DNA of 54,320 nt from the IMG/VR virus record IMGVR_UViG_3300031673_000059, positions 1 through 54,320 of that record. One strand, written 5' to 3'. Below, piece after piece: positions 1 to 46,884 of the stretch; within the stretch, counting starts at the first letter, position 1; the number at the start of each line of letters is the position of its first letter. The notes beneath the pieces are model-generated. The model saw only the letters and a list, made by a program, of their open reading frames with translations. It was not told where the DNA came from and searched no databases. The stretch is from a virus. A program made the translations under genes and the position numbers.

Positions 1-1046
1 CTCAGAGGCCCTCCGTCGCGCTTGGTGGGCTTGTTTTCGGCCCTCTTGAGGTCAGAGACCTGCTCCCGGTCTCCGACTAGCTGGGCCTTCTGACGAGCTC
101 TCTCGGCCTCCAGCTGCTCTTTACTCATGCCCATGGTGTCCTCCTCGGGTAAACCATATGGTGCACCCAGGTCCTCGTTTGGTGCGGCGCGGAACTCACG
201 ATGTTTCTCTTCGGAGTGCTGTGCCTCCGGCGGTTCGGGTGCAGGCCCAAGAGACGCGAGAGGACGTAAGTCCGATCGTGTCCTCAGACCGTTAGGTCTG
301 TCTCCCAATACATCTTCTAGTTCATCTGTACAGGGAAGCAGTGTACTGCCCGAGGGTCGGGCAGTACACTGCCATAGGTCAGGCAGTACACTGCCATAGG
401 TCGGGCAAGACACTGCCATACCTATAGCAGTGTCTTGCCCGAGGGTCGGGCAGTGTACTGCCCGAGGGTCAGGCAGTGTACTGCCCGAGGGTGAGTCGTC
501 CAGACTCGCCATCTCAGGCACTTGCGGCCCAGGACCATCACCCAAAGCATCGCCCAGGCCATCGGCAACGGCGTCATCGGCAACGGCGTCCAAATTCCCG
601 CTCGCCCACCCAGCTGGTCTGCCAGTCCGCTTCGGCCCCTTCCGCTGCTTGAATGATCTCCGCTGAAGCTCTTTGACCCCGCCTGACTCCTCGACGTAGG
701 CGATCGCGTCGACCGCTCTGTTGCTCAGTAGGCGCTCCGGGCAGTTGATGGGCGGAGGCTCTACCAGCGTGTAGACCGGGTATCGCTTGTCGTTATCGCG
801 GTAGCTGATGGAGATCAACCCGAGTCGTTCGAGGTTGCGAAGCGAGTCGAAGATAGTTCGCTCGGCTACCCTGAGCTGTCCAGCCAGGGCACCCTTCGTA
901 AGCCTGCAGACCCTCGGTCCGTCGGTCTTCTTGAGGCAGTAGGACATCAGCAGGGAGTAGAGCCTGAAGTCATGGCTGGTGAGGTCTGGGCAGCGGATGA
1001 TGTCGTCGAAGATCTGTGTGAAGAGGCGATTCTTGTCCTTGCTCAT
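1..1046 (-). CDS. winged-helix DNA-binding protein, replication-initiator-like; partial (leaves window at left edge)
   Basis: The minus-strand ATG at 1046 overlaps the TGA of ORF 1043..1369 (ATGA). Translating codon by codon I find no stop down to position 1, which explains its absence from the ORF track. The N-terminal ~95 aa (MSKDKNRLFTQIFDDIIRCPDLTSHDFRLYSLLMSYC...RTIFDSLRNLERLGLISI) are paralogous to the two upstream wHTH ORFs. The frame reads through the iteron array. An in-frame GGAGG+ATG at 134 is a possible nested start. Confidence 0.6.
   Translation of the reverse strand, partial: MSKDKNRLFTQIFDDIIRCPDLTSHDFRLYSLLMSYCLKKTDGPRVCRLTKGALAGQLRVAERTIFDSLRNLERLGLISISYRDNDKRYPVYTLVEPPPINCPERLLSNRAVDAIAYVEESGGVKELQRRSFKQRKGPKRTGRPAGWASGNLDAVADDAVADGLGDALGDGPGPQVPEMASLDDSPSGSTLPDPRAVHCPTLGQDTAIGMAVSCPTYGSVLPDLWQCTARPSGSTLLPCTDELEDVLGDRPNGLRTRSDLRPLASLGPAPEPPEAQHSEEKHREFRAAPNEDLGAPYGLPEEDTMGMSKEQLEAERARQKAQLVGDREQVSDLKRAENKPTKRDGGPL
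300..336. promoter_or_regulatory. locally AT-rich tract flanking the iteron array (possible DNA-unwinding element)
   Basis: cccaatacatcttctagttcatctgtaca is clearly more AT-rich than its surroundings and abuts iteron 1. Confidence 0.3.
337..493. repeat. iteron array: seven 14-bp near-palindromic boxes at 22-bp phasing
   Basis: Boxes are GGCAGTACACTGCC or its complement GGCAGTGTACTGCC; the two central copies are GGCAAGACACTGCC and its complement. They start at 337, 360, 382, 404, 426, 449 and 472. Copies 2-4 and 5-7 are inverted around a dyad near 421/422. Spacers are of only two kinds (CGAGGGTC, ATAGGTC). Confidence 0.9.
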
Positions 1047-1369
1047 GCGCCGCCTGCACTAGCAAGCTGTCGAAGGACGCTGTAGCCGTTATCTAGGTGC
1101 AGGAGCTCGATGTTCAGCCACCCAGGCGACCGATGGACGATCTTGATGAGTTCGAGCTCAGAGAGACGGCGGAGCGCCCTGCGGACGGTCGACGCGCTGT
1201 AGTTGGTATCGGCGGCCACGGAGCTCACGCTCCCGCAGTCAACCGGGTTGTGATAGTGGGCCCGGTATTCGGCGGCGATGTAGAGGTAGACGATCTTCTC
1301 GGAGGGCGAGAGATCGGCGTCCCGGATAATCCGGCCAGCTACCTCGGTCATCGTCCTATGCTTAGCCAA
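1043..1369 (-). CDS. winged-helix HTH protein (paralog 2 of 3)
   Basis: ORF track, 108 aa. The pattern RIIRDADLSPSEKIVYLYIAAEY...STVRRALRRLSELELIKI is shared with its neighbours. It is coupled to both neighbours by overlaps. Confidence 0.7.
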   Translation of the reverse strand: MAKHRTMTEVAGRIIRDADLSPSEKIVYLYIAAEYRAHYHNPVDCGSVSSVAADTNYSASTVRRALRRLSELELIKIVHRSPGWLNIELLHLDNGYSVLRQLASAGGA

Positions 1370-1757
1370 CGAACTGCTCCGACGAGCTGTTTAGTCGAAT
1401 CAGTCCAGTGTAAGGACCTCGCCGACTCTCCCGGCTAATGAAGCCTCTCTCCTCTAGCCGCGCGAGCACCTCGCACACGGTTCGCTTCGTAAGCCCCGTG
1501 CGCTCTGCGAGAGTTTCGAGGCCGTCGTCGATCTCCTTCGCGCTCGTGCAGAGGTCCATGAGGACCGCGAAGACGCGGACGTCCGACGACCTCATTGACC
1601 GGTCAGACACAAGCCTTCTCGGTACGCGGAGATAGCCCTGTTCACTTCGTTGCATGTGAACCCTCAAGGAGTGGTTAGTGGTGAACTTGACGCCCCGACC
1701 GGCGCAGAAAGAGTCTAGCTTGACCTGAACGGATTTCAAGTCTTTTCCGGCGCGCAT
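1362..1757 (-). CDS. winged-helix HTH protein (paralog 1 of 3)
   Basis: ORF track, 131 aa, with RVFAVLMDLC...LAERTGLTKRTVCEVLARLEERGFISR. An alternative start at ATG 1655 (GAGGG 5 nt upstream) aligns better with the paralog N-termini. Confidence 0.6.
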   Translation of the reverse strand: MRAGKDLKSVQVKLDSFCAGRGVKFTTNHSLRVHMQRSEQGYLRVPRRLVSDRSMRSSDVRVFAVLMDLCTSAKEIDDGLETLAERTGLTKRTVCEVLARLEERGFISRESRRGPYTGLIRLNSSSEQFVG

Positions 1758-1784: not shown

Positions 1785-1792
1785 GTTCTACC
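1785..1792 (-). promoter_or_regulatory. GGTAGAAC -10-like motif, 27 nt upstream of ATG 1757
   Basis: Plus strand reads gttctacc. The TAG inside the motif is the stop of the frame-B ORF ending at 1788. Confidence 0.45.
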
Positions 1793-2231
1793 GGCAGCGC
1801 CAGGCTGCGCGCATGGTCTCTGGACGAACCATGTCGAAGTTCTCTCTGTGTCGCCTTATGCACGGCTCCCTGCGGAGAACACGGAGGCGGGTCGTCCAAC
1901 CGCCACCACGAGCAACATACGCATCAGTGATGCTGTATATGGCGTTCAGGTAAGCCCCACGAACTGGCGGCTCGGCGACGAAGTCGAACGTCATGATCTG
2001 GTAATCGACAACGCCGCCCTGCTCATCAATCGATCCACGACCGCTTTGAGAGATACCGACGCTCGAACCTTCGTTGAGCGCAGCCCGGAACCGCTCAGCG
2101 GCCTCGCCACGCAGCTCGAAGGCCGACGTCATCGTGCTCGCCCACGATTGGGTTCCGGTGACCGGGTTCTGGTTCGACGCAGCACCAGTAGGTGCCTCGG
2201 GCAGCGCGACTCTTACCTCGTCTGCTGATGT
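1788..2231 (-). CDS. +1-frame continuation of the gp23-like module of the FGE fusion protein (frameshift, error or pseudogene)
   Basis: The C-terminal part of track ORF 1788..2516 (...SADEVRVALPEAPTGAAS...MTSAFELRGEAAERFRAAL...) continues the order of conserved blocks seen in the capsid paralogs. Over the same DNA, the tail of frame A is Arg-rich and junk-like. Confidence 0.4.
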   Translation of the reverse strand, partial: TSADEVRVALPEAPTGAASNQNPVTGTQSWASTMTSAFELRGEAAERFRAALNEGSSVGISQSGRGSIDEQGGVVDYQIMTFDFVAEPPVRGAYLNAIYSITDAYVARGGGWTTRLRVLRREPCIRRHRENFDMVRPETMRAAWRCR

Positions 2232-5200
2232 TGTCGAGGTAGAAAAGCATTCCGGCTCGGTTGTCGAGTGGTTGAAGAGGGGGCGGCCAGAAGGGGTTGG
2301 AGAGTCCCTGTCTGACGAGGGGTCCTGCGAACCGGAGGAATGCTGAGTCGCTGCCCCCCTCAGCGACGACTCGGTCCATGTGTCGCTGGTGGTTTTCGAG
2401 GAGCATGCCTGTAAGAGCTCTTGTGAAACTGTCGTCGACTCCTTCGAGGAGGGGGGCCCATTTCTGGGTGTAGCGGTTGACGATGCTCTGAAACTCTGGT
2501 GCCTCAGCAGCGGCACCTCCAGGCCGCTCTTGGAGTAACTCCTGCCTCAACCTCGTCATGGTAGCGAGGATCTCTGATGGTTGAATCGGCGGTGTCGCAG
2601 ACCCAGTTGAGTCCTCGGACGACGCGACCGTCGTCCACACCTCGCTCGGGGGTGCCGTCGTCGATGGTGGCGCAGAAGACGTTGAGTCCGAGTAACTCGG
2701 GTCCGGGAGCGCCGCCGACGATCCGGACCCACTCAGAAAATCCGAGTCACCTCGCTCTCCAGGCTGACCTGGGCCCGAGCCAGCAACGATGTTCACCGGC
2801 TCGGATGATCCTGGAGTCGAAGGCCTCTCCATGCTGGTAGGACTGCCAGTTACCTCCTCGGACGGTGCAGGATCCGAACCCCATCTGCTCGATGGCTCGG
2901 TCCATGACGGATCGTAGGTAGATTCGACCGCTGGTGTTCCGGGGGGCGATTCCGAAGGTTCCCTCGACGATGTGTGTGAGTGGTCTTGGGTTGACCATGA
3001 TGGCCGCCGCTTCTGCTCTTGTGATGTTTGGGCCGTAGAGGGCCCTAACCCAAAAGGGACGTCATCGGGCCCTCCATGCCGCCCGTGGACCGGCCGTAAA
3101 GTCGGGGAGTTCGGGATCGAGCCACCAGGAATCGGCCCGATCCCACCCCTGCCAGTCTCCGCCTCTGAGCGTGTAGGCGTCGATCCCGATGTAGTGCGCG
3201 ACTTCGGGCGAGACTCGCATCCAGTTGGCTGGGTTTCTGACGGTGAGCTCGTAGATTCGTTGGGCCGCCGCCGCGACCCTGGCGATAAAGGGAGGTCACC
3301 TTGCTCTCCAGGCGCACCTGAGTCCGACGTCTCTGACGTCGTTTCCGGCACCTCGCTGCCGTCTGGCGACGAAGCCCTCGTCCTCTCCTCTGAGGACCTT
3401 AGGTCGATCCTCGGCGGTGATTGCGATGTAGGGGGCGTAGATGAACCCGGTGTCAAGGACTGTGTCGCCCTTGTAGCCGAAGAGGAACCCCGTCCTGTCT
3501 CCGTCCTGGGACTGGTCAACATGGATGAGGCGGCCGCCGTCTTGGGATGAGAATGGGGGCTCTGGGTGGACCGTCCACCCAGGCCTGATCCGAAACCCGA
3601 GTCACCTCGCTCTCCAGGCCCCTCGGAGTCCGAGTCCGTGGTCGAGGTCCCAGCCCCAGACTCTGCCGGTGTCGAGGCCTGGGTCGGCGAGTTCGAGCCA
3701 GCAGATCCCCCGGACCCTGATCCGGGGCTGGAAGGGTCCGAGCCGACCGGCGTTGCGTCCTCCGCGTAGGGGCCCAACCCCATCCCGAGGTCGGAGTAAG
3801 CGTCCATGTGCTCGTAGTCAGCGTACCGGTCGAGCAGCTGCCCGGAAGGAGACATGAGACTGTCGCTCAAGGACCCCGAGCTGGTCTCGCCATCCTGGAG
3901 ATCCCTCTGGGGGTCGTCCGACATTCCAACTGATGGACTTGAGGATGTATGGGATACCGTCCTGGTAGAAGATGCCTCCGAGGTAGCAGCGTCCGAGTTC
4001 GCCGAGCTCGATCTCGCTGCATGGGTTGACCCCGAAGGCTCCGTAGGGTCCGAGCTAATGAACCCTGGCTCTCCAGGCTGTCCTGACGCCTCCTCGGTCA
4101 ATGTTGTGGCCCCTGAAGGAGGCGCCTCGCTCCCAATCCCGGGGGGACTCATCCCAGGAGTAGCTTCGGATGAGGAATCGATGATGTTGCATGCGCTCTC
4201 GGACGGAGAGGCCTGCGTAGGGTCCGAGCTAGGCTCTCCAGGCTGGTCGGAGTCCTGCGTCCTGGGCCCCTCCGACTGCTCGTCCGATGTTGCTGACGGG
4301 GAACGGATAGGTCCCGCCGTTGAGATGATATGTAGGAGGGAATCCGTAGTCAGGAACGGGGTTGATGTAGGGTCCGGGCGTTGCTCGCCGTTAGCGATGT
4401 AGCCATTCTCGGGCAGGTCCTCGACCCCTCGAACCCACTGGCACCTGGTCCATTCGAAGACGTTCCCGCAGTTGTCGTGGAGCCCCCAGTTGTTCGGATC
4501 CTTCAGGCCAACTGCCTTGTGCCCGTCCTCAAACTCGCCGCCGAACCAGGCGATCTTCTTTAGGTCCTCATCCGTGTCGCCGTTGGGGTAGCGCGTAGTC
4601 GCTCCGGCCTTAGTCGCGTATTCCCACATCGCCTCAGAGGGGAGCTGAAAGCCGACCCGCTCACCCTTCTCGTTCCAGAGCCAGGCCTGGTAGGCCGCCT
4701 CGACCTCTGCTGAGAACACCAGCGCTTGGTTCTGGACAGGCAGAGGCATGATGTCCGTGTTGACCTGTTGCTCCCACTCTCTCCACGTCAGCGTGAAGGT
4801 CTGATCTGAGTGTGTGAACTTGCAGTTGGTCAACCGTGCAAAGTCCAGCCGGTTGATGAAGTCCTCGACCTCACGGCACCGATCCCAGGAGACGCTCTCA
4901 ACAGGGTGCTCCCCCCACCTGCGCCCATCAGAGTCCTTCAACTCCATGCGGGTCGCAGGCCCGAACGGCGCGTCACCCATGCGGGTGACGTTAAGCCCCT
5001 CCTCGACCATTTCGGTCGTAGGGAAGTGACTCGGGAACTCACGTGTGACGCGGTACCACTCACGCCCGGTCCACGGGTACTTCGCCATCAGGAATGGCTC
5101 GTCGAAGGTCCGCTTGACCTGTTGCTGGGCCGTCTCATCATCAGGGTCCGCAGTGGGACCCATCATGAACTCACCCGAAGGGATCAGAACGAAGATCATC

Positions 5201-5400
5201 CCCGTCGTCTTGTGCTGATACTCAGCCAGGCCTTGGGAGTTGAGCCCGAGACACGAGAAGAGCTCAGTCTCCTCTACGCGCAGTCCGTAGGGGACGTCGT
5301 TTCCGGCCCTGCGGATTCGCGTGATGTAGTCGCCGCGATCGGCCGCGTCGCCTGTAGCCTGCCAACGGCGTTCTGCTGCTCTTAAAGCGGCGTCTGACAT
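2095..5400 (-). CDS. FGE-sulfatase (SUMF1/EgtB/PvdO-type) domain protein with long S/P/T/G/E/D-rich disordered tether and C-terminal gp23-like N-arm module
   Basis: ORF track, 1101 aa. FGE signatures: IPSGEFMMGP, HPVESVSWDRC, LPSEAMWEYATKAG, NNWGLHDNCGNVFEWT. The C-terminal QKWAPLLEGVDD..LLENHQRH..LQPLDNRAGMLFYLD matches the T4 gp23 N-terminal region and the paralogs at 33.8-35.8 kb. AGGAG lies upstream of ATG 5400. Confidence 0.8.
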   Translation of the reverse strand: MSDAALRAAERRWQATGDAADRGDYITRIRRAGNDVPYGLRVEETELFSCLGLNSQGLAEYQHKTTGMIFVLIPSGEFMMGPTADPDDETAQQQVKRTFDEPFLMAKYPWTGREWYRVTREFPSHFPTTEMVEEGLNVTRMGDAPFGPATRMELKDSDGRRWGEHPVESVSWDRCREVEDFINRLDFARLTNCKFTHSDQTFTLTWREWEQQVNTDIMPLPVQNQALVFSAEVEAAYQAWLWNEKGERVGFQLPSEAMWEYATKAGATTRYPNGDTDEDLKKIAWFGGEFEDGHKAVGLKDPNNWGLHDNCGNVFEWTRCQWVRGVEDLPENGYIANGEQRPDPTSTPFLTTDSLLHIISTAGPIRSPSATSDEQSEGPRTQDSDQPGEPSSDPTQASPSESACNIIDSSSEATPGMSPPGIGSEAPPSGATTLTEEASGQPGEPGFISSDPTEPSGSTHAARSSSANSDAATSEASSTRTVSHTSSSPSVGMSDDPQRDLQDGETSSGSLSDSLMSPSGQLLDRYADYEHMDAYSDLGMGLGPYAEDATPVGSDPSSPGSGSGGSAGSNSPTQASTPAESGAGTSTTDSDSEGPGERGDSGFGSGLGGRSTQSPHSHPKTAAASSMLTSPRTETGRGSSSATRATQSLTPGSSTPPTSQSPPRIDLRSSEERTRASSPDGSEVPETTSETSDSGAPGEQGDLPLSPGSRRRPNESTSSPSETQPTGCESRPKSRTTSGSTPTRSEAETGRGGIGPIPGGSIPNSPTLRPVHGRHGGPDDVPFGLGPSTAQTSQEQKRRPSWSTQDHSHTSSREPSESPPGTPAVESTYDPSWTEPSSRWGSDPAPSEEVTGSPTSMERPSTPGSSEPVNIVAGSGPGQPGERGDSDFLSGSGSSAALPDPSYSDSTSSAPPSTTAPPSEVWTTVASSEDSTGSATPPIQPSEILATMTRLRQELLQERPGGAAAEAPEFQSIVNRYTQKWAPLLEGVDDSFTRALTGMLLENHQRHMDRVVAEGGSDSAFLRFAGPLVRQGLSNPFWPPPLQPLDNRAGMLFYLDNISRRGKSRAARGTYWCCVEPEPGHRNPIVGEHDDVGLRAAWRGR

Positions 5401-5418
5401 AATGATCTCCTGGTCTCT

Positions 5419-5427
5419 GTTTTACCC
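5419..5427 (-). promoter_or_regulatory. GGGTAAAAC -10-like motif, 18-nt leader with AGGAG before ATG 5400
   Basis: Plus strand reads gttttaccc, in the 28-nt gap between the ATPase and the FGE gene. Confidence 0.45.
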
Positions 5428-5428
5428 A

Positions 5429-6817
5429 TCAGACTCCAAAGAGCGCATGGAAGAAGCTCTTGGGCTGGTAGGCCTTCTTCTCGGGCTGCTTGGGCGTGAC
5501 CTTGACATTGGGCGAACTGGGACCACTCGACGGATCGAGTCGCAGCAGCTCATCACCGCTCATGGGGCCCCGAAGGAAGCTGTAGGCCCACCGGATCTTG
5601 GTCACAGCGTGCTCCCCGCTCTTCTTCAGGATCAGGAAGTGCCGCTGAGGAATCGACGTCAGGGTCGACGTGTCCACGTTCCGGCTGGAAAGCTCCTTCT
5701 TGAGGTCCCGGGCGCAGTCCCGGGGCCGCAGCTTGCCGAGGAACCAAGTGCCGACGTTGGTCAGCGCCTTGTAGTCCATGTCGTTAGGGTTCTGAGTCCC
5801 GATCAGCATACCGATGCCCTGGGCCCGGCCCTGAGCGAGGAGCGTGCAGATCGGCTTCTTGGTCGGCGGGTTGAGCGGGTAGGGCGGGAGGTAGCCCCGC
5901 GCCTCGTCCAAGACGACCAGCAGCTTCAGCTTGTTGCTGGCCGGCGCCCGGAACATGTAGTCCACGATCGCCGACAGCAGCATGCCAGCGAAGAACTGCC
6001 GCTCACCCTCGTCCAGGTGTCGGAGGGAGAACACCGAGACCTTAGGCTTGCCGGTGCCCACGTAGCTCTCGATCGAGAGCGGAGAACCGTCGAGCCACTT
6101 GGTCGCTTGCCGCCGGAAGCCGACGATCGACCGAGCGATCTGCATCCGCTTCTTCTTGGGGAAGAAGTCGTCGAGGCTCAGGCCATCGATCTCCTTCAGA
6201 TTGGCAGGGGGCGTGTTCAGAGCGGCGGACCACGTGTCCAGACCGGCCGCCTGACCCGAGGCCCAGGCGTCGACCATCACGTCCGTCAGGAAGACGTTCG
6301 CGGGGTCGGTCATGGGGTCGGCGGTGTGGCCGATCGCGTTGAGGACTCCGGCGACCAGGGCCGAGGCCCGGTCCCGCAGCGCTTGCTCACTGTAGTTGCC
6401 GGTGGGAGCGTCGAAGGACGCCAGGACGTTGACGGACTGGCCGCCGCCTCGGGTCTTGCCGGGGGCGTAGATCGTGACATCGGCGGCCGACTTCCACCGC
6501 TGGACGTTGGGAGCCAGGTGGCCGAGCTCCTTCCGAGCTCGGTCAGCGATCTCGCCCGGGTCCTTGCCGTCCTCCGCCCAGGGAGCGAATTCGCCGGCGG
6601 CCAGACCGGGGAAGGCCAGGGCCAGATTGGTGAGGTCGCCCTTGGGGTCAATGATGATCGCGGACGCGCCGCTCAGCACGGCCTCTTCGATCGTGGCGAC
6701 GGTGGCGCCGGTCTTGCCGGAGCCGGTCCGACCCAGGACCACGCCGTGGGTGGTAAGGTCGGCGGGGTCGATCGTGAGAGGAGTTCCGTCGTTCTTGGTG
6801 CCGATCAACATGCTCAT
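5429..6817 (-). CDS. HerA/FtsK-superfamily P-loop ATPase, DUF853 (YjgR)-like
   Basis: Walker A is VLGRTGSGKTG, Walker B is LLVVLDEARG, followed by GIGMLIGTQNPNDMDY. The start is moved to ATG 6817 (MSMLIGT...) because GGTAGAAA sits exactly 5 nt upstream. The track ORF starts at 6856. Confidence 0.8.
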   Translation of the reverse strand: MSMLIGTKNDGTPLTIDPADLTTHGVVLGRTGSGKTGATVATIEEAVLSGASAIIIDPKGDLTNLALAFPGLAAGEFAPWAEDGKDPGEIADRARKELGHLAPNVQRWKSAADVTIYAPGKTRGGGQSVNVLASFDAPTGNYSEQALRDRASALVAGVLNAIGHTADPMTDPANVFLTDVMVDAWASGQAAGLDTWSAALNTPPANLKEIDGLSLDDFFPKKKRMQIARSIVGFRRQATKWLDGSPLSIESYVGTGKPKVSVFSLRHLDEGERQFFAGMLLSAIVDYMFRAPASNKLKLLVVLDEARGYLPPYPLNPPTKKPICTLLAQGRAQGIGMLIGTQNPNDMDYKALTNVGTWFLGKLRPRDCARDLKKELSSRNVDTSTLTSIPQRHFLILKKSGEHAVTKIRWAYSFLRGPMSGDELLRLDPSSGPSSPNVKVTPKQPEKKAYQPKSFFHALFGV

Positions 6818-16692: not shown

Positions 16693-17058
16693 ATGAAGAC
16701 CGGCGCGAGGAAGGCAGTCGTCCGTAAGCTACGGAAGATGGTGAACCGGCATATCGGCAACATGGTCGATGAGAAGTTCGAAATGGGCTGCCTGGCGGCA
16801 AGTCTGTTCCCGGACTGGGTTGAGAGCGACTACTCCACCTTTGATCTTTACCTGTTCCACGGCTGTGGAATCCCATGGAACATCGCCAGTCGCCTGGAGA
16901 CGATGGCTCACACCTACTACGAGATTCCATCTCTTCAGATTTGGATGCAGGTGGGATACACAAGAGCCGCCCAAGCAGCCGGACAAGGCCGAGAGGGCCA
17001 AATCCGAGCGCTGCTTGAAAGCGGCTCTAATGTGCTAGACGTGATGACGTTGATCTAG
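16693..17058 (+). CDS. hypothetical protein; C-terminal NVLDVMTLI
   Basis: ORF track, 121 aa. Confidence 0.65.
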   Translation: MKTGARKAVVRKLRKMVNRHIGNMVDEKFEMGCLAASLFPDWVESDYSTFDLYLFHGCGIPWNIASRLETMAHTYYEIPSLQIWMQVGYTRAAQAAGQGREGQIRALLESGSNVLDVMTLI

Positions 17059-18140
17059 ACGGCGATCGGCGCTTCGGTGCAGACCGTGGTGAGGATCCTG
17101 GTGCAGACCCGGTAGGGGTCGCAGTTGGCTCCGGGTCGCCGATCTTCGATGTAGCCGTAGCCCTGCTGGGCTACCTGGGCGGGGATGCGGATCGAGCAGC
17201 CGCGATCACTGTCACCGACCTTGAACGTGTTGATGTCGCACGTCTCGTGCTTGCCGGTCAGGCGCTTCTCCAGGCCGAAGCCGTAGTCTGCGATGTGCTC
17301 GGCGTGGACCTCCGACATCGCCTTGACCGCCGCCGCGATAGCCGACTTGCCGGTGCCTGGGTCTCGCATCTCCTTCGTGGAGAAGTTTGTGTGAGCGCCC
17401 GCACCGTTCCAGTCGCCTTGCTCAGGCTTGCAGTTGAGGGTGGCCGAGATGCCGTAGTCCTCGCCGATCCGGAACAGGAGCCAACGCGCAAAGATCAGGT
17501 GATCTGCGACTGTGAGAGGGTCGGCTGACTCGCCCGGGAACCCAGGACGATGACCGATCTGGAACTCCCACTGACCCAGCATGACTTCGGCATTGATGCC
17601 GTAGATCATCAGCCCGGCCCTCATGCAGGCGCTGAGGTGATCCTCGACCAGCTTGCGGCCCGCAACCTCGTCAGCTCCGACGCCGCAGTAGTAGGGTCCC
17701 TGAGCGCGCTGCGGGAGTCCCTTCTCCGGCCATCCAAGGGGGCGGCCAGTGTCTAGGTTGTAGAGCGTGTACTCCTGCTCGAAGCCGAACCAGGGATCGT
17801 GGTCCTCAGCGACCGACATGATGTCCCGCAGACGGCTGCGAGTGTTGGTCTTGTGCGGCATGTCGTCTGGAGTGGTGACCTCGCACAGGACCAGGAAGTT
17901 GGCGCCGCCGCGAATCGGGTCGTTGACGACGCGAACCGGGGTGAGCACCTGGTCTGAGTTGGACGTCCCCGCCTGATTGGTCGACGAGCCGTCGAAACCC
18001 CAGACCGGAAAGGACGTGTAGTCGATGACGCCCTTCTGATCATCGGGTAGATAGACCACACGGGTCTTCGACCGAAGGTTCTGGACAGGGATGTCGGCGG
18101 ATCCGCCGTCCATCCAGATGTATTCAGCTCGTACGTGCAT
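17055..18140 (-). CDS. glnII: glutamine synthetase type II (eukaryote-like GSII)
   Basis: 361 aa. Blocks are AEYIWMDGG...LRSKTRVV, FGFEQEYTL, YYCGVGA, INAEVMLGQWEFQIG, GAGAHTNFS, RLTGKHET and SIRIP...YIEDRRPGANCDPY. Confidence 0.92.
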   Translation of the reverse strand: MHVRAEYIWMDGGSADIPVQNLRSKTRVVYLPDDQKGVIDYTSFPVWGFDGSSTNQAGTSNSDQVLTPVRVVNDPIRGGANFLVLCEVTTPDDMPHKTNTRSRLRDIMSVAEDHDPWFGFEQEYTLYNLDTGRPLGWPEKGLPQRAQGPYYCGVGADEVAGRKLVEDHLSACMRAGLMIYGINAEVMLGQWEFQIGHRPGFPGESADPLTVADHLIFARWLLFRIGEDYGISATLNCKPEQGDWNGAGAHTNFSTKEMRDPGTGKSAIAAAVKAMSEVHAEHIADYGFGLEKRLTGKHETCDINTFKVGDSDRGCSIRIPAQVAQQGYGYIEDRRPGANCDPYRVCTRILTTVCTEAPIAV

Positions 18141-18226
18141 AAGGCCCTTCCTGACTAATGGGGTTTGAAAGGGCAGTTTATAGCGTACTTAGGGCCGCCT
18201 CGTCGAGCCAGCTCTTATGATCGGGC

Positions 18227-18421
18227 TCATTCACCGATCAGAGCGGCGGCCAGCGTGTTCATGAACGGGCCCACCACAGCATCGTTGCTGAGTCGACGAG
18301 CCGTCATCACCACGCGTGGCATATCGATGTGGTCCTCCGCGCATAGAGAGCGGATGATGGCTTGAGCTTCCTCACCTTTGAGTGAGGCCAACCAACGAAG
18401 CAGGTGTTCTTCAGGTGTCAT
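18227..18421 (-). CDS. hypothetical small protein
   Basis: MTPEEHLLRWLASLKGEEAQAIIRSL... AGGAG lies 5 nt before ATG 18421. The longer track ORF 18227..18877 is junk upstream of this point. Confidence 0.55.
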   Translation of the reverse strand: MTPEEHLLRWLASLKGEEAQAIIRSLCAEDHIDMPRVVMTARRLSNDAVVGPFMNTLAAALIGE

Positions 18422-18429
18422 AGGGTCTC

Positions 18430-19611
18430 CTAGTCTATTGATCCGACGATCCGATCGAGCACACCGACCATGTCGAGCATTGTCCCTAGGTATTCGATCG
18501 CCTTGTCTTTCCCCCAGGCGTGGAGCAGACACTCCCTCTCCTTGGGGCCGCCCTTGCAGGTTACCCCGTCCTTCTCGCCGAGCGCCTTGACTACGCTCGA
18601 ATCGAACGCCTCGTTGTTCTTCCTCTGCATCTTGATGTTGATGACCCTCTTCCGAGGGCCGATGGTGATGGTGTAGTCGCCGTAGGCGATGGCGTACCAA
18701 GGCTCGTTTTTGAACTGGTCCTTGTAGTAGCCGTTGGGGAGCTCCGTCCTCGTCTTGTTGGCCAGTCCGACCGCCTCGAAGATCTCGTTGAAGAGCTTGG
18801 CGTGCCGGAGCTTGATCGGGTCGACCGGGACCTCGATTTCCTGACTCCGCCCTGCGTCCACCGCCTCCCAGGTCCACTCGCCGTCGACCTTGTTCTGGAT
18901 CCAGACGCTGACCTCATCGCCGGGAACCTGGGGAGGGATAGGGGACGCAGGGTGCCCAGTCTGGTACCAGGACTTCTTGCCGGCCGCCGCGTGGGCTTCG
19001 AGCGCGTCTAGGATCTCCTGGGAGTGTCTCTTTACCTCGTAGAGGGCGTTCTCGGCCATGTTCTTGAGAACTGCCATCCGGTCGATGGCGTCAGGGGCGT
19101 CCATCATGCCCCATTCCGAGCCCGGGTCTGACACCCGCCTCTTCCAGTTGGGCTCCCACTGACCGATGGTTTTCAGGAGGCCGAGGAGCAGAGGACCCTT
19201 CTTGGGCTCGGCTACCCCGCCATCGAGAAGCGGAAAGACCAGCATCCCGATCGGGCCTCCGGCTCCGAGTTCGGCCAGCCTAGCGACAGCAGTGTTCCGA
19301 TCTGCCTCAGGGGTCAAGGGGGTGACAAGCGCTCTGAGCTGAGAGACCTCTTCGTCGAAGGCGGCCTTGTTGGCCCGCCAGGTCTTGAGGACCGTGCCGT
19401 TGAACCAGTCGGCCACCCTCTCGGAGAGACCCTCGCCCGGCTTCCGCATGAGCATGAAGAGGTTCCCGCCGTCGGCGGCCATATGGACCCCGAACCGGTC
19501 GCAGCCCTTGCACTTGAAGTTGCTCTGCGACATCCCGCCGAAGGAACCACCGTGACCCTGCCACTTAGGCGCGGCGCAGATACAGGACGGTACGTTCTCT
19601 GGCAACGCCAT
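18430..19611 (-). CDS. hypothetical protein; C-terminal GVLDRIVGSID
   Basis: ORF track, 393 aa. TAATG overlap with the NADAR gene. Confidence 0.7.
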   Translation of the reverse strand: MALPENVPSCICAAPKWQGHGGSFGGMSQSNFKCKGCDRFGVHMAADGGNLFMLMRKPGEGLSERVADWFNGTVLKTWRANKAAFDEEVSQLRALVTPLTPEADRNTAVARLAELGAGGPIGMLVFPLLDGGVAEPKKGPLLLGLLKTIGQWEPNWKRRVSDPGSEWGMMDAPDAIDRMAVLKNMAENALYEVKRHSQEILDALEAHAAAGKKSWYQTGHPASPIPPQVPGDEVSVWIQNKVDGEWTWEAVDAGRSQEIEVPVDPIKLRHAKLFNEIFEAVGLANKTRTELPNGYYKDQFKNEPWYAIAYGDYTITIGPRKRVINIKMQRKNNEAFDSSVVKALGEKDGVTCKGGPKERECLLHAWGKDKAIEYLGTMLDMVGVLDRIVGSID

Positions 19612-33703: not shown

Positions 33704-33844
33704 ACCTACGACTGGGAGGTGGGCGCCAGGCTGGTTGCCCAACTGATCGCGTCCAAGGACCCACTAGGGCTGGTCGAGTCGTGGGAGACGCCGGACAACT
33801 GCGAGCTGCCAGGATATGGCCGGGTGCGGATCGACAACGTCTAG
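33704..33844 (+). other. 46 in-frame coding-like codons after TGA 33701 (readthrough / selenocysteine / sequencing error candidate)
   Basis: TYDWEVGARLVAQLIASKDPLGLVESWETPDNCELPGYGRVRIDNV*. Most third positions are G/C, as in genes here. There is no usable start codon. It ends in a 4-nt overlap (ctag) with the stop of the convergent capsid gene. Confidence 0.4.
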
Positions 33845-34779
33845 TAGGGCGTTCCGGCCAACGTGATCAGAGATGCGAACTCCGGCCTCACGAGTGTGAT
33901 TTTGTGCCGGGTGCGGATCGCGCGCCGAAGAGTCTTGTCGGCCGGATCTACGAAGTTCGGTGTGATCTCGACCATGGTGTAAGGACTGTAGATGACGCAC
34001 GTATCCATTACGCTGTCGTCTGCCTGATACCAGGCCAGCAGCTTCCCTACGGGGAAGAGGGGATCCAGGTAGACGCCCCTGCCGTCAACCTCGCCGATTT
34101 TGGCGATGCCGTCTGCCTCTTGGACGTCAAAGCCAAGCTGGGCCAGCATCGCCGCGTTGCCAATGACCCTGTTTGCCGGGTTCCGCTGAGACCCCCGATG
34201 GACGATGTGGGCCGCCCTGTCCAGAGCTTCTTTGAGATCACCGCCGGCGGCCAACTCGATCTTGTTGTTGTCCAGGACGCCGTTCAGGATCGTTCCTACG
34301 ATCTCCCGAGCCACCTCGGTCAGGAGTGCGTCGATGTTCAGAGCCCCCTCTTCGTTGACGTCGGTGTGTGCCTTGCAGCGCCTCGACTCCGCTCGGATCT
34401 CTTGAGGGATGATGTCCAGCACGACGGAAGGCACCTTGACCTTCCTCTCGACGCCGTCTTGAATCAGGGTCGCCTCCTCCATCTCCCCGAAGCGCGGCTT
34501 GTAGTAGTAGACGATCCCGATCGGCCCAGTCATCGGCTGCACCGCGCAGAGGTCCGGGAGCACGTGGGTCCGGACCGAGGCCTTGAGGTTATCGAAGAGA
34601 TCCTCCGTCCACGAGCCGAGGACCAATGCCCGGGTCTCCTCGACGAGACGCTGAAGGTGTCTGCTCTGGTTCTCGCAGACCATGGCAGCGATGTTCGACC
34701 TGTAGCCGTCCTCTAGGCCCCACTTGGTGCGGAGCTTCTCTAGATAGCTCTCGTCCGGCATACCATCAAGCTGAGTCAT
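33841..34779 (-). CDS. T4 gp23/gp24-family capsid-fold protein, compact paralog A
   Basis: LRTKWGLEDGY..MVCENQSRH, DLCAVQPMTGPIGIVYYYK, ANRVIGNAAML and GVYLDPLFP..LAWY....MDTCVIYSPY match the remembered T4 gp23 blocks (KWKPLLEG..IFENQ, VQPMNSPTGQVF, YRVYIDQY..GYKGP..DAGIYYAPY). The start is ATG 34779 (AGGAGG 4 nt upstream). Confidence 0.85.
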   Translation of the reverse strand: MTQLDGMPDESYLEKLRTKWGLEDGYRSNIAAMVCENQSRHLQRLVEETRALVLGSWTEDLFDNLKASVRTHVLPDLCAVQPMTGPIGIVYYYKPRFGEMEEATLIQDGVERKVKVPSVVLDIIPQEIRAESRRCKAHTDVNEEGALNIDALLTEVAREIVGTILNGVLDNNKIELAAGGDLKEALDRAAHIVHRGSQRNPANRVIGNAAMLAQLGFDVQEADGIAKIGEVDGRGVYLDPLFPVGKLLAWYQADDSVMDTCVIYSPYTMVEITPNFVDPADKTLRRAIRTRHKITLVRPEFASLITLAGTPY

Positions 34780-34824
34780 AGTTCCTCCTGATGCGGAGGG
34801 TACCACAACTACATCAGATTTACA

Positions 34825-35778
34825 TCAGACAATCTGCGCCAACCGCTCCAGGACGTTGACCTTAACCACCTGGATGTGGCTCGGATGGGCCACATGGATG
34901 TTGTGGTTCAGGTAGATCGCGAAGTTGTGGCGGCCGTCCATCGGATCGAGCGGGTAGCAGAAGGGCGAGTAGACGACCGGCGTGTCTACGATGCTTGGTC
35001 CCATGTACCAGAGCATTACTTCACCGTCAGGGAACAGCGGATCCAGGTAGACGTGCATCCTCTGCTTGTAGACGCCTACCTTCTTCACCAGGCCGGTATC
35101 AGTCGTGTCCCACTCGTCCGGATCCTCCGGCGAGAAAAGCTCCAACATCTTCTCATTGCCGATCACGTGATTGGCCGGGCCCCGCATGCAGCGCTTGTGG
35201 ACCATCTGCGAGGCGCGAAGGATATCAGTGTCGAACGCGGTGTAGGTCGACTCCAACACATTGCCGGCGGCCGATCCCGCGCCGTGCATGACGCCCAACA
35301 CCTCGCGGATGGACGCCAGCATGACCGAGTCGAACACGCTGTCGATGAGCGCGAAGTTTCCTGGGTAGATCCTGACGCCGAGTCGCCTGATGGAGGCTTG
35401 GACGTTGACCGTCTGCAGGTTCAACGTCATCGTCGGGATCGATGTGCTCCCAGGAGTAGTGGGTCCGGCCGGCGTGGTGATGTTGGTTTGGCCGTAGAAG
35501 CCGATGGTGTCTGATGGCCTCCGTAGGGGCTGGACCGACACCATGTCGATCAGGGGGCAGTGCACCCAGGCCTTCACGAGAGCTCGGTAGAACTTGTCCT
35601 TCCAGTTGTCGCCATAGGTCTCTTCCAGATCATCGGGGATCAGCGATGAGCAAAGGACGTTGGCCTGGTTCTCCAACAGTAGAGCGATGACGCCAGAGCG
35701 CTTGTGATGGCCGGGGAGGTAACCCTCCCACTTCTCGGTCAGAGCCTTGATGTGGTCGTTGTCCAACATGGTGGGCAT
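34825..35778 (-). CDS. T4 gp23/gp24-family capsid-fold protein, compact paralog B; C-terminal NVLERLAQIV
   Basis: TEKWEGYLPG..LLLENQANV, MVSVQPLRRPSDTIGFYG, ANHVIGNEKML and MHVYLDPLFPDGEVMLWYMGPSIVDTPVVYSPF. Confidence 0.85.
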   Translation of the reverse strand: MPTMLDNDHIKALTEKWEGYLPGHHKRSGVIALLLENQANVLCSSLIPDDLEETYGDNWKDKFYRALVKAWVHCPLIDMVSVQPLRRPSDTIGFYGQTNITTPAGPTTPGSTSIPTMTLNLQTVNVQASIRRLGVRIYPGNFALIDSVFDSVMLASIREVLGVMHGAGSAAGNVLESTYTAFDTDILRASQMVHKRCMRGPANHVIGNEKMLELFSPEDPDEWDTTDTGLVKKVGVYKQRMHVYLDPLFPDGEVMLWYMGPSIVDTPVVYSPFCYPLDPMDGRHNFAIYLNHNIHVAHPSHIQVVKVNVLERLAQIV

Positions 35779-37221: not shown

Positions 37222-37506
37222 TTACTCCTCGATGGCGCCCAGGATGTCGAGCACGGTGCCGTTGATGTTGGTGTCTAGCGTCTGCAGTCGCTGTGGACTG
37301 AGGATCCTGATCCGCCCCGTCTTGAGGTTGAGGGCCGCTCGAACATCGCATGTTCCTCGGCAGCAAGAGAGCAGAGCGAATGTCGTCTCCAGTGAACCGG
37401 CCTCTCCTCCAACGCCGTCCTGCGTAAGGAGCTGACCATCGATGGGGCACCGCTGCTGCATGAGCCGAGCGATACGGTCGTGCTTGGCCTGCTTGGCCTT
37501 ACTCAT
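37222..37506 (-). CDS. hypothetical protein; C-terminal TVLDILGAIEE
   Basis: ORF track, 94 aa. Confidence 0.6.
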   Translation of the reverse strand: MSKAKQAKHDRIARLMQQRCPIDGQLLTQDGVGGEAGSLETTFALLSCCRGTCDVRAALNLKTGRIRILSPQRLQTLDTNINGTVLDILGAIEE

Positions 37507-37825
37507 CGATCAACCGCTCGCCGTTCTCGTCGACGAACTCACACGTGGAGTAGGCGGCGGCCGTCATGTCGGCGTGTCGCACCCACCAGACGTCCCCGCC
37601 GTGGCCTCCCACCCAGGAGCCGAGCTCCCCCCAGGCTCCAGGTCGTCGAGCTTCGATGTGCTTCTCCGCGATTAGGAAGCCCCCAGTCCCATGGAGGGGG
37701 GCAACCGTCCTGACGAGCTTCCGGCCGCTGGCTCGGCACCGAGCTCGGACCAACCTCTCGGCCGCGTCCTCGGTGCCCTGCTCCATGAAGGCTCGTTCGA
37801 GCTCTCGTAGTTGAGCGTCGCTCAT
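37499..37825 (-). CDS. hypothetical protein
   Basis: ORF track, 108 aa. The N-terminus MSDAQLRELERAF..G.EDAAERLVRARCRA resembles the N-terminus of the FGE protein (MSDAALRAAERRWQATGDAADRGDYITRIRRA). Confidence 0.6.
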   Translation of the reverse strand: MSDAQLRELERAFMEQGTEDAAERLVRARCRASGRKLVRTVAPLHGTGGFLIAEKHIEARRPGAWGELGSWVGGHGGDVWWVRHADMTAAAYSTCEFVDENGERLIDE

Positions 37826-39283: not shown

Positions 39284-40450
39284 TTAGGCGTCCACGGTTC
39301 CAGACTCGTCCTTGTCGTAGAACCACTCCATGATCCGCTTGTGGATCAGCTCCTCCATCTCGGAGTCCGAGACCCACGGACCAACGCCCGGGAACTCGAA
39401 GAGCGCTCCACCCTCGGCCGATCCATCAGGGAGCGACTTGGCCCCCGACTTGTCGCCGAACCGGTCTGCGAGCGTCTCGCCGAGGGGTGTGGTGTAGTCC
39501 TCGCTCCTGGCGCAGACTCGAATCTTCAGTGTGACATCGCCGGTTGTCTTGTCCTTGACCTCGACAACCGCCCACGTGACCGCCAACGGCGCTCCGACGG
39601 TCCTCAGGAGCTCATCGGCGACCATGGCCAGGTCGTCGCCGCACTTCTCCGGGATCCGGCCCAGACCGCCTAGGATTCGACCCTTACGGTAGGTGTCGTG
39701 CTTGTCCACGTAGGCTACTGCTCGGGACAGGTGCTTCAGGAAGGAGAACTGGCGCTTGTAGTTGACCAGGTCGCAGAGCAAGGAAGCGTCTGTGTAGCGC
39801 TTGACCCAGGCATAGGCCTGGTCATCACGCTCCCCCGACCGTGTGTTGCTCTTGCAGTCGGTGTAAATGCCGAGGGCGAGCATCAGCGCCAGGTCGGATT
39901 TGAACTCCCAGGTCTCCGGCGTGATCTCTGAAAGAAGCTCTGCGACCATCGTACTTGCCGAGCCTGAACTCTCGTCGAGCCAGAGAAAGATGTCCTCTCG
40001 GTCCTTGATGTCAGACTTCTCGTGATGATCGACCACGATCACCGGCTCGATCACGAAGGGCAGGCGGCTGTCCTTTGACTTGCTGGAGTCGACCAGGACG
40101 ATGTTCTCTGGGCACTGACCGGATGAATCAGTGTTCGGGTCCGTGAGCGACCGCATCCTGCTCATCAGACCGAGCTTCTGGCAGAGCGCCTCGTTTTGGG
40201 GATGCCCCACTCGTCCTTGGTAGTAGATGTGAGAGGTATGGCCGAGTTGGCTCAGGACTTCTTGCATACCGAAGGCCGACCCGATTGCGTCGGGGTCGAT
40301 CTGAGCGATGTAGATGGCGAATGGGCCATGCTCGGCCCGTTCCGCCGCCACTCGCCTCAACTTCTCGATACGACTCTCGTCGATACCGGGGCGTGCGATC
40401 TTCCGGGTAACGGTCATCGTCTCCTGGGCAAGCGCCTTTACTTCGGCCAT
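39284..40450 (-). CDS. DHH-family phosphoesterase (NrnA/RecJ-like)
   Basis: IAQIDPDAIGSAFG (DxD motif) and VIVVDHHEKSD (DHH motif). Start moved to ATG 40450 (MAEVKALAQE...). Confidence 0.8.
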   Translation of the reverse strand: MAEVKALAQETMTVTRKIARPGIDESRIEKLRRVAAERAEHGPFAIYIAQIDPDAIGSAFGMQEVLSQLGHTSHIYYQGRVGHPQNEALCQKLGLMSRMRSLTDPNTDSSGQCPENIVLVDSSKSKDSRLPFVIEPVIVVDHHEKSDIKDREDIFLWLDESSGSASTMVAELLSEITPETWEFKSDLALMLALGIYTDCKSNTRSGERDDQAYAWVKRYTDASLLCDLVNYKRQFSFLKHLSRAVAYVDKHDTYRKGRILGGLGRIPEKCGDDLAMVADELLRTVGAPLAVTWAVVEVKDKTTGDVTLKIRVCARSEDYTTPLGETLADRFGDKSGAKSLPDGSAEGGALFEFPGVGPWVSDSEMEELIHKRIMEWFYDKDESGTVDA

Positions 40451-40524
40451 CCTAGAACCTCGCTCGTGCTTAGTGAAATCGGATCTCGCGCGAAGCGCGA
40501 GACCTAGTGTAGTGCGCAGGCTTC

Positions 40525-40532
40525 CTTTTACC
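40525..40532 (-). promoter_or_regulatory. GGTAAAAG motif, 74-nt leader to ATG 40450
   Basis: Plus strand reads cttttacc(c). Divergent with 40548..40555. Confidence 0.4.
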
Positions 40533-40547
40533 CTATCGGCCGAATTC

Positions 40548-40555
40548 GGTATAAC
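40548..40555 (+). promoter_or_regulatory. GGTATAAC, 7 nt, ATG 40563
   Basis: ggtataac aaacccc atg. Confidence 0.5.
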
Positions 40556-40562
40556 AAACCCC

Positions 40563-41027
40563 ATGAACGACACAATCAAAAACGATGACGCTAAGCATCA
40601 ATACGTGTTGGTTGCCATGTGGACCGCGAAGGATCATCACGGGCAAGAGCAATACTCCCACCGAGTGGTTCATTCGACGTGGGAGGGCGAGTGGGACCCG
40701 AAAGGTATCGTCGAGCGCTACGTCCAGACGGAGCACCCGACCTGGATGCCGGACAGCTTCGGCAAGATCGGATACTTCATGGCGGAGGCTGAGGTCGAGC
40801 TCAGCCGAGTCGCGGTCTATAAGGTGGTCGGCGGCCGCCACGAAGACGCCTGGCCTGAATGGCTTGAGGAAGCAAGGGCTAAGCGCGCCTCAATCGATGT
40901 GGAGCGCGAGCGTATGGCCGACATGCAGACGATCGCACTGCTTCAGAGGAAGTGGGGCCTAGGTGAGCAAACAGAAGCCAAAGAAGCGAGCGCAGCGACT
41001 GAAGAGGGCGAAGCGGCGGAAGCATAG
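40563..41027 (+). CDS. hypothetical protein with acidic tail
   Basis: Start moved to ATG 40563 (MNDTIKNDDAKHQYVLVAMW...). Confidence 0.65.
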   Translation: MNDTIKNDDAKHQYVLVAMWTAKDHHGQEQYSHRVVHSTWEGEWDPKGIVERYVQTEHPTWMPDSFGKIGYFMAEAEVELSRVAVYKVVGGRHEDAWPEWLEEARAKRASIDVERERMADMQTIALLQRKWGLGEQTEAKEASAATEEGEAAEA

Positions 41028-46820: not shown

Positions 46821-46825
46821 GTTTA

Positions 46826-46833: not shown

Positions 46834-46871
46834 TTCGATGAATCGCTGTTGGTCGCTCGTTGGTTCTGAAA

Positions 46872-46879: not shown

Positions 46880-46884
46880 AACGT

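Follow-up and report, generated by a model that had tools for sequence, protein, structure and literature searches.

The variable proteins of diversity-generating retroelements (DGRs), such as Mtd of a Bordetella phage and TvpA of Treponema, belong to the FGE-type C-type-lectin fold family, in which the N- and C-terminal strands pair together (PMC5006420), and the part that is varied is the C-terminal segment up to the stop codon, where the scaffold motifs RGGSW, CRSA.R and GFR are conserved and the loops vary (PMC5006420). In the recombination arrays of the Rhs/CdiA orphan tips, pilS, the R64 shufflon and the invertible fibre ends of Mu and P1, a constant body is combined with tandem alternative C-termini at conserved junctions, and close relatives differ in a cassette-local, mosaic manner. 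Ribosomal -1 frameshifting, as in E. coli dnaX, IS911/IS3, lambda G/GT and T7 10A/10B, uses zero-frame slippery tetramers or heptamers that lead to a conserved -1 product. Here, we describe a gene on the minus strand of a 54,320-nucleotide stretch of viral DNA (IMG/VR record IMGVR_UViG_3300031673_000059, positions 1 to 54,320; hereafter the window) that resembles all of these systems. Its protein shares the fold family of the DGR proteins, both being phage-borne, and its varied part is likewise the C-terminal segment. An earlier note on this DNA had read the gene as an FGE-sulfatase domain tethered by a disordered linker to a third, truncated gp23-like capsid module. We found that the "linker" carries, in another reading frame, tandem copies of the segment that closes the FGE domain, that this architecture is conserved in relatives with selection on both frames, and that slippery motifs stand at the junctions. 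With moderate confidence, we infer that serial -1 recoding gives isoforms that have one body and different closing cassettes.

The trunk open reading frame (ORF; frame A) lies at 2095..5400 (-) and encodes 1101 amino acids, with an AGGAG 7 nt before its ATG and a stop codon at 2097-2095. It consists of an FGE-like body (FGE-N), a spacer in which eight cassettes (C1 to C8) are read in their +1 frame, and an in-frame cassette A. FGE-N (4393..5193 (-)) is an FGE-type C-type-lectin fold domain without the last ~48 profile positions. The Pfam family FGE-sulfatase (PF03781) matched residues 70-336 of the trunk (E-value 2.8e-19, 70.2 bits, cut-off 23.3), which bears out the domain named in the earlier note, but the match is contiguous only over profile positions 5-207 of 255 and a complete domain was not found. 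The G+C content at third codon positions (GC3) of frame A is 0.75-0.88 in FGE-N. The low-complexity stretch seen there is also real: about 640 residues rich in S, P, T, G, E and D follow FGE-N in the trunk frame. The closing segment of the domain, about 45 residues of the form RV.RGG.W ... GFR.AWR.R-stop, is found in the trunk frame only about 730 residues downstream, in cassette A, and otherwise in other frames. The homologues P0019-P0022, whose FGE-N is 49-51% identical, finish in frame with a canonical FGE C-terminus (RV.RGGSW..CRSA.R..LGFRPAWRSA), and the cassette tail is therefore the missing closing segment of the fold. True FGEs of the SUMF1 type, such as human FGE, carry a catalytic cysteine pair (C-x4-C) in this C-terminal segment. 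In the cassettes of relatives a single Cys, that of CRSA, could be seen by eye, and the tails in the window have no C-x4-C.

The closing segment is present ten times at the locus: the "linker" holds eight tandem copies in its -1 frame (frame F1), one is in frame behind a gp23 fragment, and one lies downstream in the +1 frame (frame B) behind a fragment of a gp21 prohead protease. All three reading frames of the locus finish in ...R.AWR.R-stop, a motif that occurs six times between 3640 and 1788 on this strand and nowhere else in the 54 kb. F1 has the highest GC3 across the "linker" and is split into eight pieces that end in the tail motif. The junction DNA is conserved, and the repeated DNA motif of the array reads GQPGERGDSDF in frame A; Tandem Repeats Finder reported no repeats.

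The same arrangement recurs in relatives. From one metagenome scan and the viral collection 13 loci were obtained, and ten distinct loci, viral or metagenomic, were analysed. In all ten, FGE-N in one frame is followed by 2-14 cassettes, all in its -1 frame, and then by an in-frame cassette; the first cassette past FGE-N is always -1 out of frame, and several loci have one more cassette in the +1 frame after the in-frame one. The number of -1-frame cassettes is 8 in the window, 2 in L003, 14 in L005, at least 11 in L016, 8 in L018, 4-5 in L019, 3 in L020, about 10 in L021, 2 in L007 and 3 in L008. In the simpler relatives, two to five copies of the closing segment, in perfect tandem, make up the -1 frame of the "linker", and each of them begins at the P.GP motif of the domain directly after the preceding stop. 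The hypothetical -1 product of L008 gives one contiguous Pfam match over positions 5-254 of 255 with 129.6 bits, compared to 108.5 bits for the FGE-N of L008 alone. The two-frame layout was seen again in independent assemblies from different samples. No close relatives were found in 185,579 bacterial and archaeal genomes, and all those found were in viral or metagenomic contigs. In the literature searched, we found no description of such an in-gene cassette arrangement. L022 (Ga0114918_10005048, 3402-6283) has an extra frame change inside FGE-N, with the trunk and cassettes all moved by one frame, which may reflect a faulty assembly, a pseudogene or one more recoding site. Between L005 and L013 (99.3% identical), all 30 substitutions fall in two adjacent cassettes (L005 about 6128-6540), a 2-nt and a 1-nt deletion compensate each other so that both frames are regained after 9 nt, and the 1 kb of FGE-N has no differences.

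Both frames of the array are kept open. The expected number of stop codons was obtained at three loci by synonymous shuffling of the other frame. With F1 taken as coding, frame A had 0 stops compared to 4.8, 1.8 and 3.6 expected (P < 0.0005, 0.11 and 0.0065; the window is the locus with 4.8), and with frame A taken as coding, F1 had 7, 1 and 13 stops compared to 19.8, 7.5 and 44.3 expected, all of them at cassette ends. In the same test, the stop count of frame B fitted the expectation, and this frame behaves as non-coding. The window and its near-identical relative L004 (97.5%) differ at 46 sites. All 19 substitutions within 3171-2959 are non-synonymous in frame A; in F1, 13 of them fall on third positions and 11 leave the amino acid unchanged. 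Of the 46 differences, 16, mostly synonymous in F1, lie within 112 nt of C6, and the next 518 nt have none. Between L016 and L021, third-position substitutions in the array numbered 54 for F1, 34 for frame A and 23 for frame B (p 0.0013), and in FGE-N they numbered 72 for frame A compared to 23 and 33. The alignment of C6 with its L005 orthologue scored 148 in F1 compared to 59 in frame A, and the ratio of non-synonymous to synonymous substitution rates (dN/dS) of C6 was 0.17-0.57 in F1 compared to 0.4-2.1 in frame A (0.27 and 2.07 in the least saturated pair). The DNA of the window and L003 is too diverged for phasing substitutions. Taken together, these results show that purifying selection acts on F1 within the array. 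The stretch is thus not the mere linker that had been proposed: it is the out-of-frame reading of eight further cassettes, and the gp23 fragment that it was thought to tether is an insert in the last, in-frame copy of the FGE segment.

The junctions between cassettes carry candidate slip sites. An in-register C_CC.T or T_TT.Y tetramer is found 3-12 nt past the previous F1 stop at 49 of 49 junctions that lead to an F1 cassette, compared to 13.7% of background windows; of the junctions that lead to an in-frame cassette, five of seven have no slippery tetramer and two have one. C_CC.U and U_UU.Y tetramers are frameshift-prone classes in E. coli (PMC4066793). The first in-register C_CC.T of the window (cgc ccg gaC CCT aca; 4369..4372 (-)) lies 19 nt after the F1 stop TAA at 4393-4391 and is the candidate site for slipping into C1; its motif CCCGGACCCTA also starts cassettes in relatives. 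Only three canonical heptamers are present in the window ORF, and they stand exactly at the starts of C5, C6 and C7 (G_GGT_TTC, C_CCT_TTA and C_CCT_TTT); in the three trunk ORFs examined, seven of eight canonical X_XXY_YYZ heptamers sit 3-6 nt past a cassette stop. C8 starts with G_GAT_TTT, and GGAUUUU (G_GAU_UUU) is the proven slippery site of Pea enation mosaic virus (PMC4737148). Codon usage at the junctions departs from that of the genome (Phe as TTT in 16 of 16 compared to 14%, Pro always as CCC compared to 34%, Arg as AGA/AGG in 67% compared to 27%), and the bias runs toward creating slippery runs and an upstream GGAG/GAGG. Such a Shine-Dalgarno (SD)-like tetramer (GGAG/GAGG) is found upstream of 56 of 64 tails, with the slip sites 9-16 nt downstream of it, which is similar to the upstream SD-like element and spacing of dnaX (PMC4066793).

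Other ways of reaching the second frame were considered. Recoding of TGA as sense is disfavoured because the junction stops mix TGA, TAG and TAA, and other window genes use the standard code. An RF2-like +1 slip at AGG_TGA is disfavoured because the last sense codon varies (AGG, CGA, CGG, CGT, TGC, CCC). As for internal initiation, no ATG, GTG or TTG precedes RGG.W in 43 of 63 F1 cassettes, and the GTG within the junction motif opens the non-coding frame B.

In the mechanism that we propose, the locus would encode one ligand-binding protein of the FGE-type C-type-lectin fold, with its closing segment hard-coded as ten head-to-tail alternatives. Ribosomes on the trunk would slip by -1 at C_CC.U or U_UU.Y just after the stop of the previous cassette, translate that single cassette and then terminate at its stop, and the output would be nested isoforms with the same body, a lengthening spacer and exactly one closing cassette each. 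Ribosomes that do not slip would make the 1101-aa protein closed by cassette A, the trunk holding no closing segment before that point. The "linker" would be stop-free and hydrophilic because the trunk reads the unused cassettes out of frame. Compared to known cases of -1 frameshifting, this locus is unlike in having up to 14 serial candidate sites per ORF, each leading to an alternative copy of the same element and a stop; no downstream stimulatory structure was found, and the frameshifting is here a prediction from sequence. Tentatively, the locus may be a hard-wired generator of diversity at the level of translation, a frameshift "cassette chooser" that makes about 10 lectin-fold binders per infected cell (up to about 15 in relatives), which would differ in the surface that DGRs hypermutate, with the unused cassettes doubling as an evolved stop-free spacer.

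Several points weigh against this mechanism. The frameshifting is deduced purely from the DNA, C_CC.Y tetramers by themselves shift weakly in E. coli (PMC4066793), and no consistent RNA structure was found downstream of the junctions (z -2.2 to +2.5). Because the junctions are homologous repeats, the 49 of 49 tetramers and the codon-bias counts are not independent, and a frame-A peptide motif (PGE.GDSDF / SDPT) may account for part of the DNA conservation. dN/dS clearly favours F1 only for C6, and C5 and C8 are ambiguous. Cassette B in the +1 frame does not fit the -1 scheme and may use its own conserved GTG start. Of the window cassettes, C1-C4 are degenerate, and C4 is apparently broken. Finally, the AlphaFold2 (AF2) model of FGE-N with cassette A was uninformative and left the tail undocked, with two helices at a predicted local distance difference test score (pLDDT) of 50-59 and the rest below 25.

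Many cassettes carry further sequence ahead of their tail. In the lineage of the window, most have an insert just before RGG.W, and the identifiable inserts are fragments of prohead proteins; these capsid and protease inserts occur only in the cassette frames. T4-type major capsid proteins have a homologue of their first ~90 residues in the trunk C-terminus, namely the segment QKWAPLLEG...LLENHQRH...FLRFAGPLVRQ...LQPLDNRAGMLFYLD. With a capsid hidden Markov model (HMM) built from 4 canonical T4-type capsid proteins, the cassette A insert matched positions 7-92 (E-value 1e-10), and an exhaustive search of 1.8 billion proteins matched it to capsid-protein N-termini (E-values 2e-4 to 9e-4). It is 34% identical over 76 aa to gp23 of phage Melnitz; a word-indexed protein search with the joined C-terminus gave no matches. 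The gp23 N-terminal homology that had been noticed from sequence is thus genuine. The two paralogs at 33.8-35.8 kb with which it had been compared do belong to Pfam Gp23, but of the claimed likeness to both, only that to paralog A was recovered (pairwise E-value 1e-5 over 44 aa), and the pairwise comparison with paralog B was not significant. The prohead-protein fragments are nearer to canonical T4-type proteins than to the phage's own ~320-aa capsid paralogs (42.4 compared to 29.6 bits).

Besides the gp23 piece, other inserts match gp23 or gp21, which makes at least five such fragments in all. The C5 insert matched Pfam Gp23 positions 301-326 (E-value 1.3e-3) and capsid HMM positions 336-370 (E-value about 1e-6), and the C6 insert matched capsid HMM positions 262-292 (E-value 1e-3 to 2e-3). 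The C7 insert matched positions 37-59 of a protease HMM (E-value 0.012), and its counterpart fragment in L021 had an E-value of 9.5e-4. The cassette B insert matched protease HMM positions 104-172 of 204 (E-value 3.4e-16), as well as phrog_207 and P0013/P0016, and is 30% identical to the protease of Serratia phage BF; its Ser motif GISQSG stands opposite GVSSRG in the alignment with the proteases of phages BF and Melnitz. The His-bearing half of the protease is missing from cassette B, and frame B upstream of it is low-complexity sequence. Among ten further cassettes, PHROGs gave one match, to capsid protein, and a gp23 spine-helix fragment is present in L018 (capsid HMM 181-205). No identity was found for the inserts of C3, C4 and C8. 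For C6, a tail belonging to a capsid protein (LDP.LP..AW aligned with VY.DP.FP..GY) was considered and ruled out by the canonical ends of P0019-P0022. Compared to T4 gp23 and gp21, the inserts are fragments of 25-90 residues, out of order and within lectin-tail cassettes, and no match spans a complete HK97 fold. They may serve in prohead targeting, as decoys for capsid-sensing defence or as part of the binding site; displayed on the binder, the capsid and protease fragments may be decoys for host capsid sensors or signals that load it into the prohead.

Within the array, C1 (4229..4390 (-)) reads ..TPGPYINPVPDYGFPPTYHLNGGTYPF..GLRPAWRA-stop and is a degenerate FGE C-terminal segment, and joining it to FGE-N did not extend the Pfam match (71.9 bits). 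C2 (4055..4228 (-)) reads LGPYAGLSV...IRSYSW...RTAWRARVH-stop and has a C_CC.T 6 nt after the preceding stop, and C3 (3818..4054 (-)), with orthologues in L016 and L021, reads LGPYGAFGVNPCSEIELGELG...SFRAAARPVR-stop. C4 (3602..3817 (-)) reads ..PLRGGRN...GLRGAWRAR-stop and appears broken, with its LGPY start in frame A. Over 3602-3960 (-), this cassette seems to be split, the LGPY start and a non-repetitive LLDRYADYEHMDAYSDLGMGLGPYAED being in frame A and the RGG...AWRAR tail in F1; the GC3 of frame A rises to 0.85-0.88 at 3900-3840. C5 (3296..3601 (-)) has a fragment of the T4-type capsid C-terminus as its insert (GFLFGYKGDTVLDTGFIYAPYIAIT), the tail ..GLRCAWRAR-stop and its heptamer at the start. 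C6 (3062..3295 (-)) has a capsid A-domain fragment (AAAAQRIYELTVRNPANWMRVSPEVAHY) followed by TLRGGDW...GPRAAWRAR-stop, with the heptamer at 3292-3286, and C7 (2747..3061 (-)) has an N-terminal strand-helix fragment of a gp21-type protease (IVEGTFGIAPRNTSGRIYLRSVMDRAIEQ) followed by TVRGGNW...GPRSAWRAR-stop, with the heptamer at 3058-3052. C8 (2504..2746 (-)) reads LGFSEWVRIVGG...VVRGLNWVCDTADSTIRDPRYHDE..PRAAWRCRC-stop and has orthologues in L003, L005 and L021. All eight are in F1.

The insert of the in-frame cassette A (2236..2472 (-)) is the gp23 N-terminal fragment, with the helix KWAPLLEG..LLENHQRH, VAE/G, FLRFAGPLVRQ and LQPLDNRAGMLFY; its VAE/G, a candidate cleavage-type site, coincides in position with the LTE/A where T4 gp23 is cleaved. 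The tail of cassette A (2095..2208 (-); AARGTYWCCVEPEPGHRNPIVGEHDDVGLRAAWRGR and a stop) supplies the FGE C-terminal segment with which the 1101-aa product ends, and it aligns with the ends of P0019-P0022. As the earlier note had seen, a second frame continues beyond the trunk stop. This frame B ORF (1788..2516 (-); +1 of the trunk) has a conserved GTG at 2516 and about 135 aa of low complexity that overlap cassette A, and then cassette B, whose insert (1917..2123 (-); ..NEGSSVGISQSGRGSIDEQGGVVDYQIMTFDFVAEPPVRGAY) is the C-terminal third of a gp21-type prohead protease and whose tail (1788..1913 (-)) is YVARGGGWTTRLRVLRREPCIRRHRENFDMVRPETMRAAWRCR and a TAG. When the cassette B tail was appended to FGE-N, the Pfam match rose from 70.2 to 80.6 bits and reached profile position 229. 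Frame B is open for about 250 codons in the window, L003 and L005 and elsewhere has the expected number of stops; the ORF is supported by P0005, and between about 2220 and 1790 the GC3 speaks for frame B. The N-terminal region of the trunk, about 55 residues (5236..5400 (-); MSDAALRAAERRW...), is helical and conserved in the alignments of all relatives, and AF2 placed helices at residues 3-16, 19-31 and 38-44 with a pLDDT of about 80. The window proteins at 5236-5400 and 37499-37825 both begin with MSDA.LR..ER, a helical motif common to all trunk homologues; the pairwise similarity between the trunk N-terminus and the ORF at 37499..37825 was not significant (E-value 0.73).

The main rival explanation is that the array is a reservoir of silent cassettes, in which only the last in-frame cassette is translated and the upstream ones are untranslated donors for homologous recombination, with it or among themselves, through the junctions, as in pilS or the Rhs/CdiA tips. 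We consider this unlikely, although it would suit the mosaic, cassette-local differences between near-identical genomes (16 of 46 in 112 nt of C6, and all 30 in two cassettes for L005 and L013), the conserved junction DNA and the range of 2 to 14 cassettes across relatives, and an open trunk is needed under it as well. What it leaves unexplained is why every upstream cassette is exactly -1 of the trunk at 10 of 10 loci, why a stop is kept directly after each cassette tail, why an in-register tetramer stands at 49 of 49 cassette starts compared to 2 of 7 in-frame junctions, and why the first cassette is never simply placed in frame with the adjoining FGE-N. Neither a recombinase nor inverted repeats came to light, and unlike in the recombination arrays, the cassettes lie inside an expressed ORF, all at -1, with their own stop and slippery site. 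The same fold and the variation of the same C-terminal part (PMC5006420, PMC5758913), together with an Asn-rich terminal cassette in one relative (RGGSWNNTASNC), would also fit the target of a DGR, with the extra copies as template and variable repeats for a reverse transcriptase elsewhere in the ~200-kb genome. This is hardly credible: identity between the cassettes of one locus is only 68-89%, their mismatches involve all four bases and their lengths differ, the 54-kb window has no YxDD-type reverse transcriptase ORF, and the families listed for the flanks of L005, L007 and L008 include no RVT. Because no reverse transcriptase and no adenine-specific mismatches were found, the locus is, as far as the window and these flanks show, not a DGR; within the window it has no template repeat either, and unlike in a DGR its variation is limited to 3-15 hard-coded cassettes, which lie within the gene itself but in another frame.

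The fusion first proposed for this gene, in which an FGE domain, a disordered linker and a truncated capsid module would be taken into or onto the capsid and the second frame would be duplication debris, is quite improbable. The gp23 N-terminal homology is real and includes the propeptide helix and VAE/G at the T4 cleavage position, and further inserts, also being fragments of prohead proteins, would suit co-assembly with the prohead core. However, only ~80-110 N-terminal residues of gp23 are present, and neither ORF A nor ORF B gave a Pfam Gp23 match in the scan that recovered FGE-sulfatase, and a "third capsid module" is not supported. Nor is there a capsid module of ~250 aa joined across the frameshift: the capsid similarity ends at ...MLFYLD, and the continuation is a gp21-type protease fragment and an FGE end. 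L007, L008, L019 and L020 have the same architecture without any capsid fragment, F1 shows purifying selection and a deficit of stops, and the gene is placed among replication-type genes. The earlier observation is therefore partly confirmed, and its interpretation partly supported. It is very improbable that the gene is decaying, with the array as duplication debris and the frame-B tail as a pseudogene remnant or an assembly frameshift; the degenerate C1-C4, the broken C4 and the extra frameshift inside FGE-N of L022 speak for such decay, but the two-frame layout is repeated in independent assemblies from different samples, both frames are open against expectation, third-position substitutions are biased to F1, and orthologous cassettes are kept as proteins between distant relatives.

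The window has a G+C content of 60%, and its genes, which include a DEAD-box helicase, an ATP-dependent ligase, a tail-collar protein, a HerA-like ATPase and two Gp23-family capsid paralogs, are phage-like; no tRNAs were found in the 54 kb. Its nearest long relative is L003, a 203.5-kb IMG/VR contig whose ATPase is 79% identical to that of the window. The gene order ATPase, cassette gene, two winged-helix genes is kept in L003 and in L005 (a 157.5-kb contig), and the surroundings are of the replication type, with the HerA-like ATPase and winged helix-turn-helix proteins in the window and also DnaB and primase in L005. The two small winged-helix (HTH_36/MarR-like) genes always lie 3' of the cassette locus (window 1043-1757 (-), L003 14000-14660, L005 8688-9312), and in L003 and L005 they stand ahead of the replication block. 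In L003, which comes from a related jumbo phage, 16908-19535 encodes an 875-aa DnaB-like helicase that appears to have an intein-like insertion (CLSPDTPV...VHNT, with an endonuclease-like middle); its L005 orthologue has 461 aa.

The two capsid paralogs (33841-35778) are 27% identical to each other and lie without a canonical head module in the region up to 40579. PHROGs on eight ORFs near them found no portal, scaffold or protease, a 431-aa ORF at 39284..40579 resembles by eye a DHH phosphoesterase, and protease-like sequence in the window is confined to the fragments within cassettes. With capsid paralog B as a query against viral contigs, there were no matches. A glutamine-synthetase-like gene stands in this phage setting at 17055-18140 (-) (Pfam Gln-synt_C, E-value 3.7e-12; Gln-synt_N, E-value 3.9e-8). 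At three more places, 18227-19611, 38211-39259 and 46077-47454, all (-), two long ORFs of one strand overlap in different frames, and these pairs may be ordinary high-GC shadow ORFs or further two-frame genes. The 867-aa (-) ORF at 51434-54320 has a first-position G+C (GC1) of 0.87, and its translation, rich in L, R, G, D and V, is of the kind typically given by the opposite strand of a real gene; a plus-strand gene probably runs off the window end there.

FGE-like domains act as ligand sensors in bacterial STAND NTPase systems, a point that the earlier note had raised and that the literature bears out (PMC13581612). The window protein is of the same FGE-sulfatase family as the sensors of these STAND/NLR-like defence NTPases (PMC13581612, PMC10907252), but it is phage-encoded and lacks an NTPase or effector domain. 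The architecture escapes gene callers and domain scans entirely, which return an FGE-sulfatase plus a disordered region, and similar arrays may lie in other "linkers". The capsid and protease inserts tie in with current work on how bacterial receptors recognise conserved structural proteins of phages, and they are concrete peptides for tests of decoys or packaging signals. If the proposed recoding is true, the locus would hold an unusually long maintained dual-coding region, of 1.9 kb here and 3.2 kb in a relative, and it would be a third route to diversify the binding site of a C-type-lectin fold, beside retroelement hypermutation and DNA shuffling, one that would need no enzyme and would leave the DNA unchanged.

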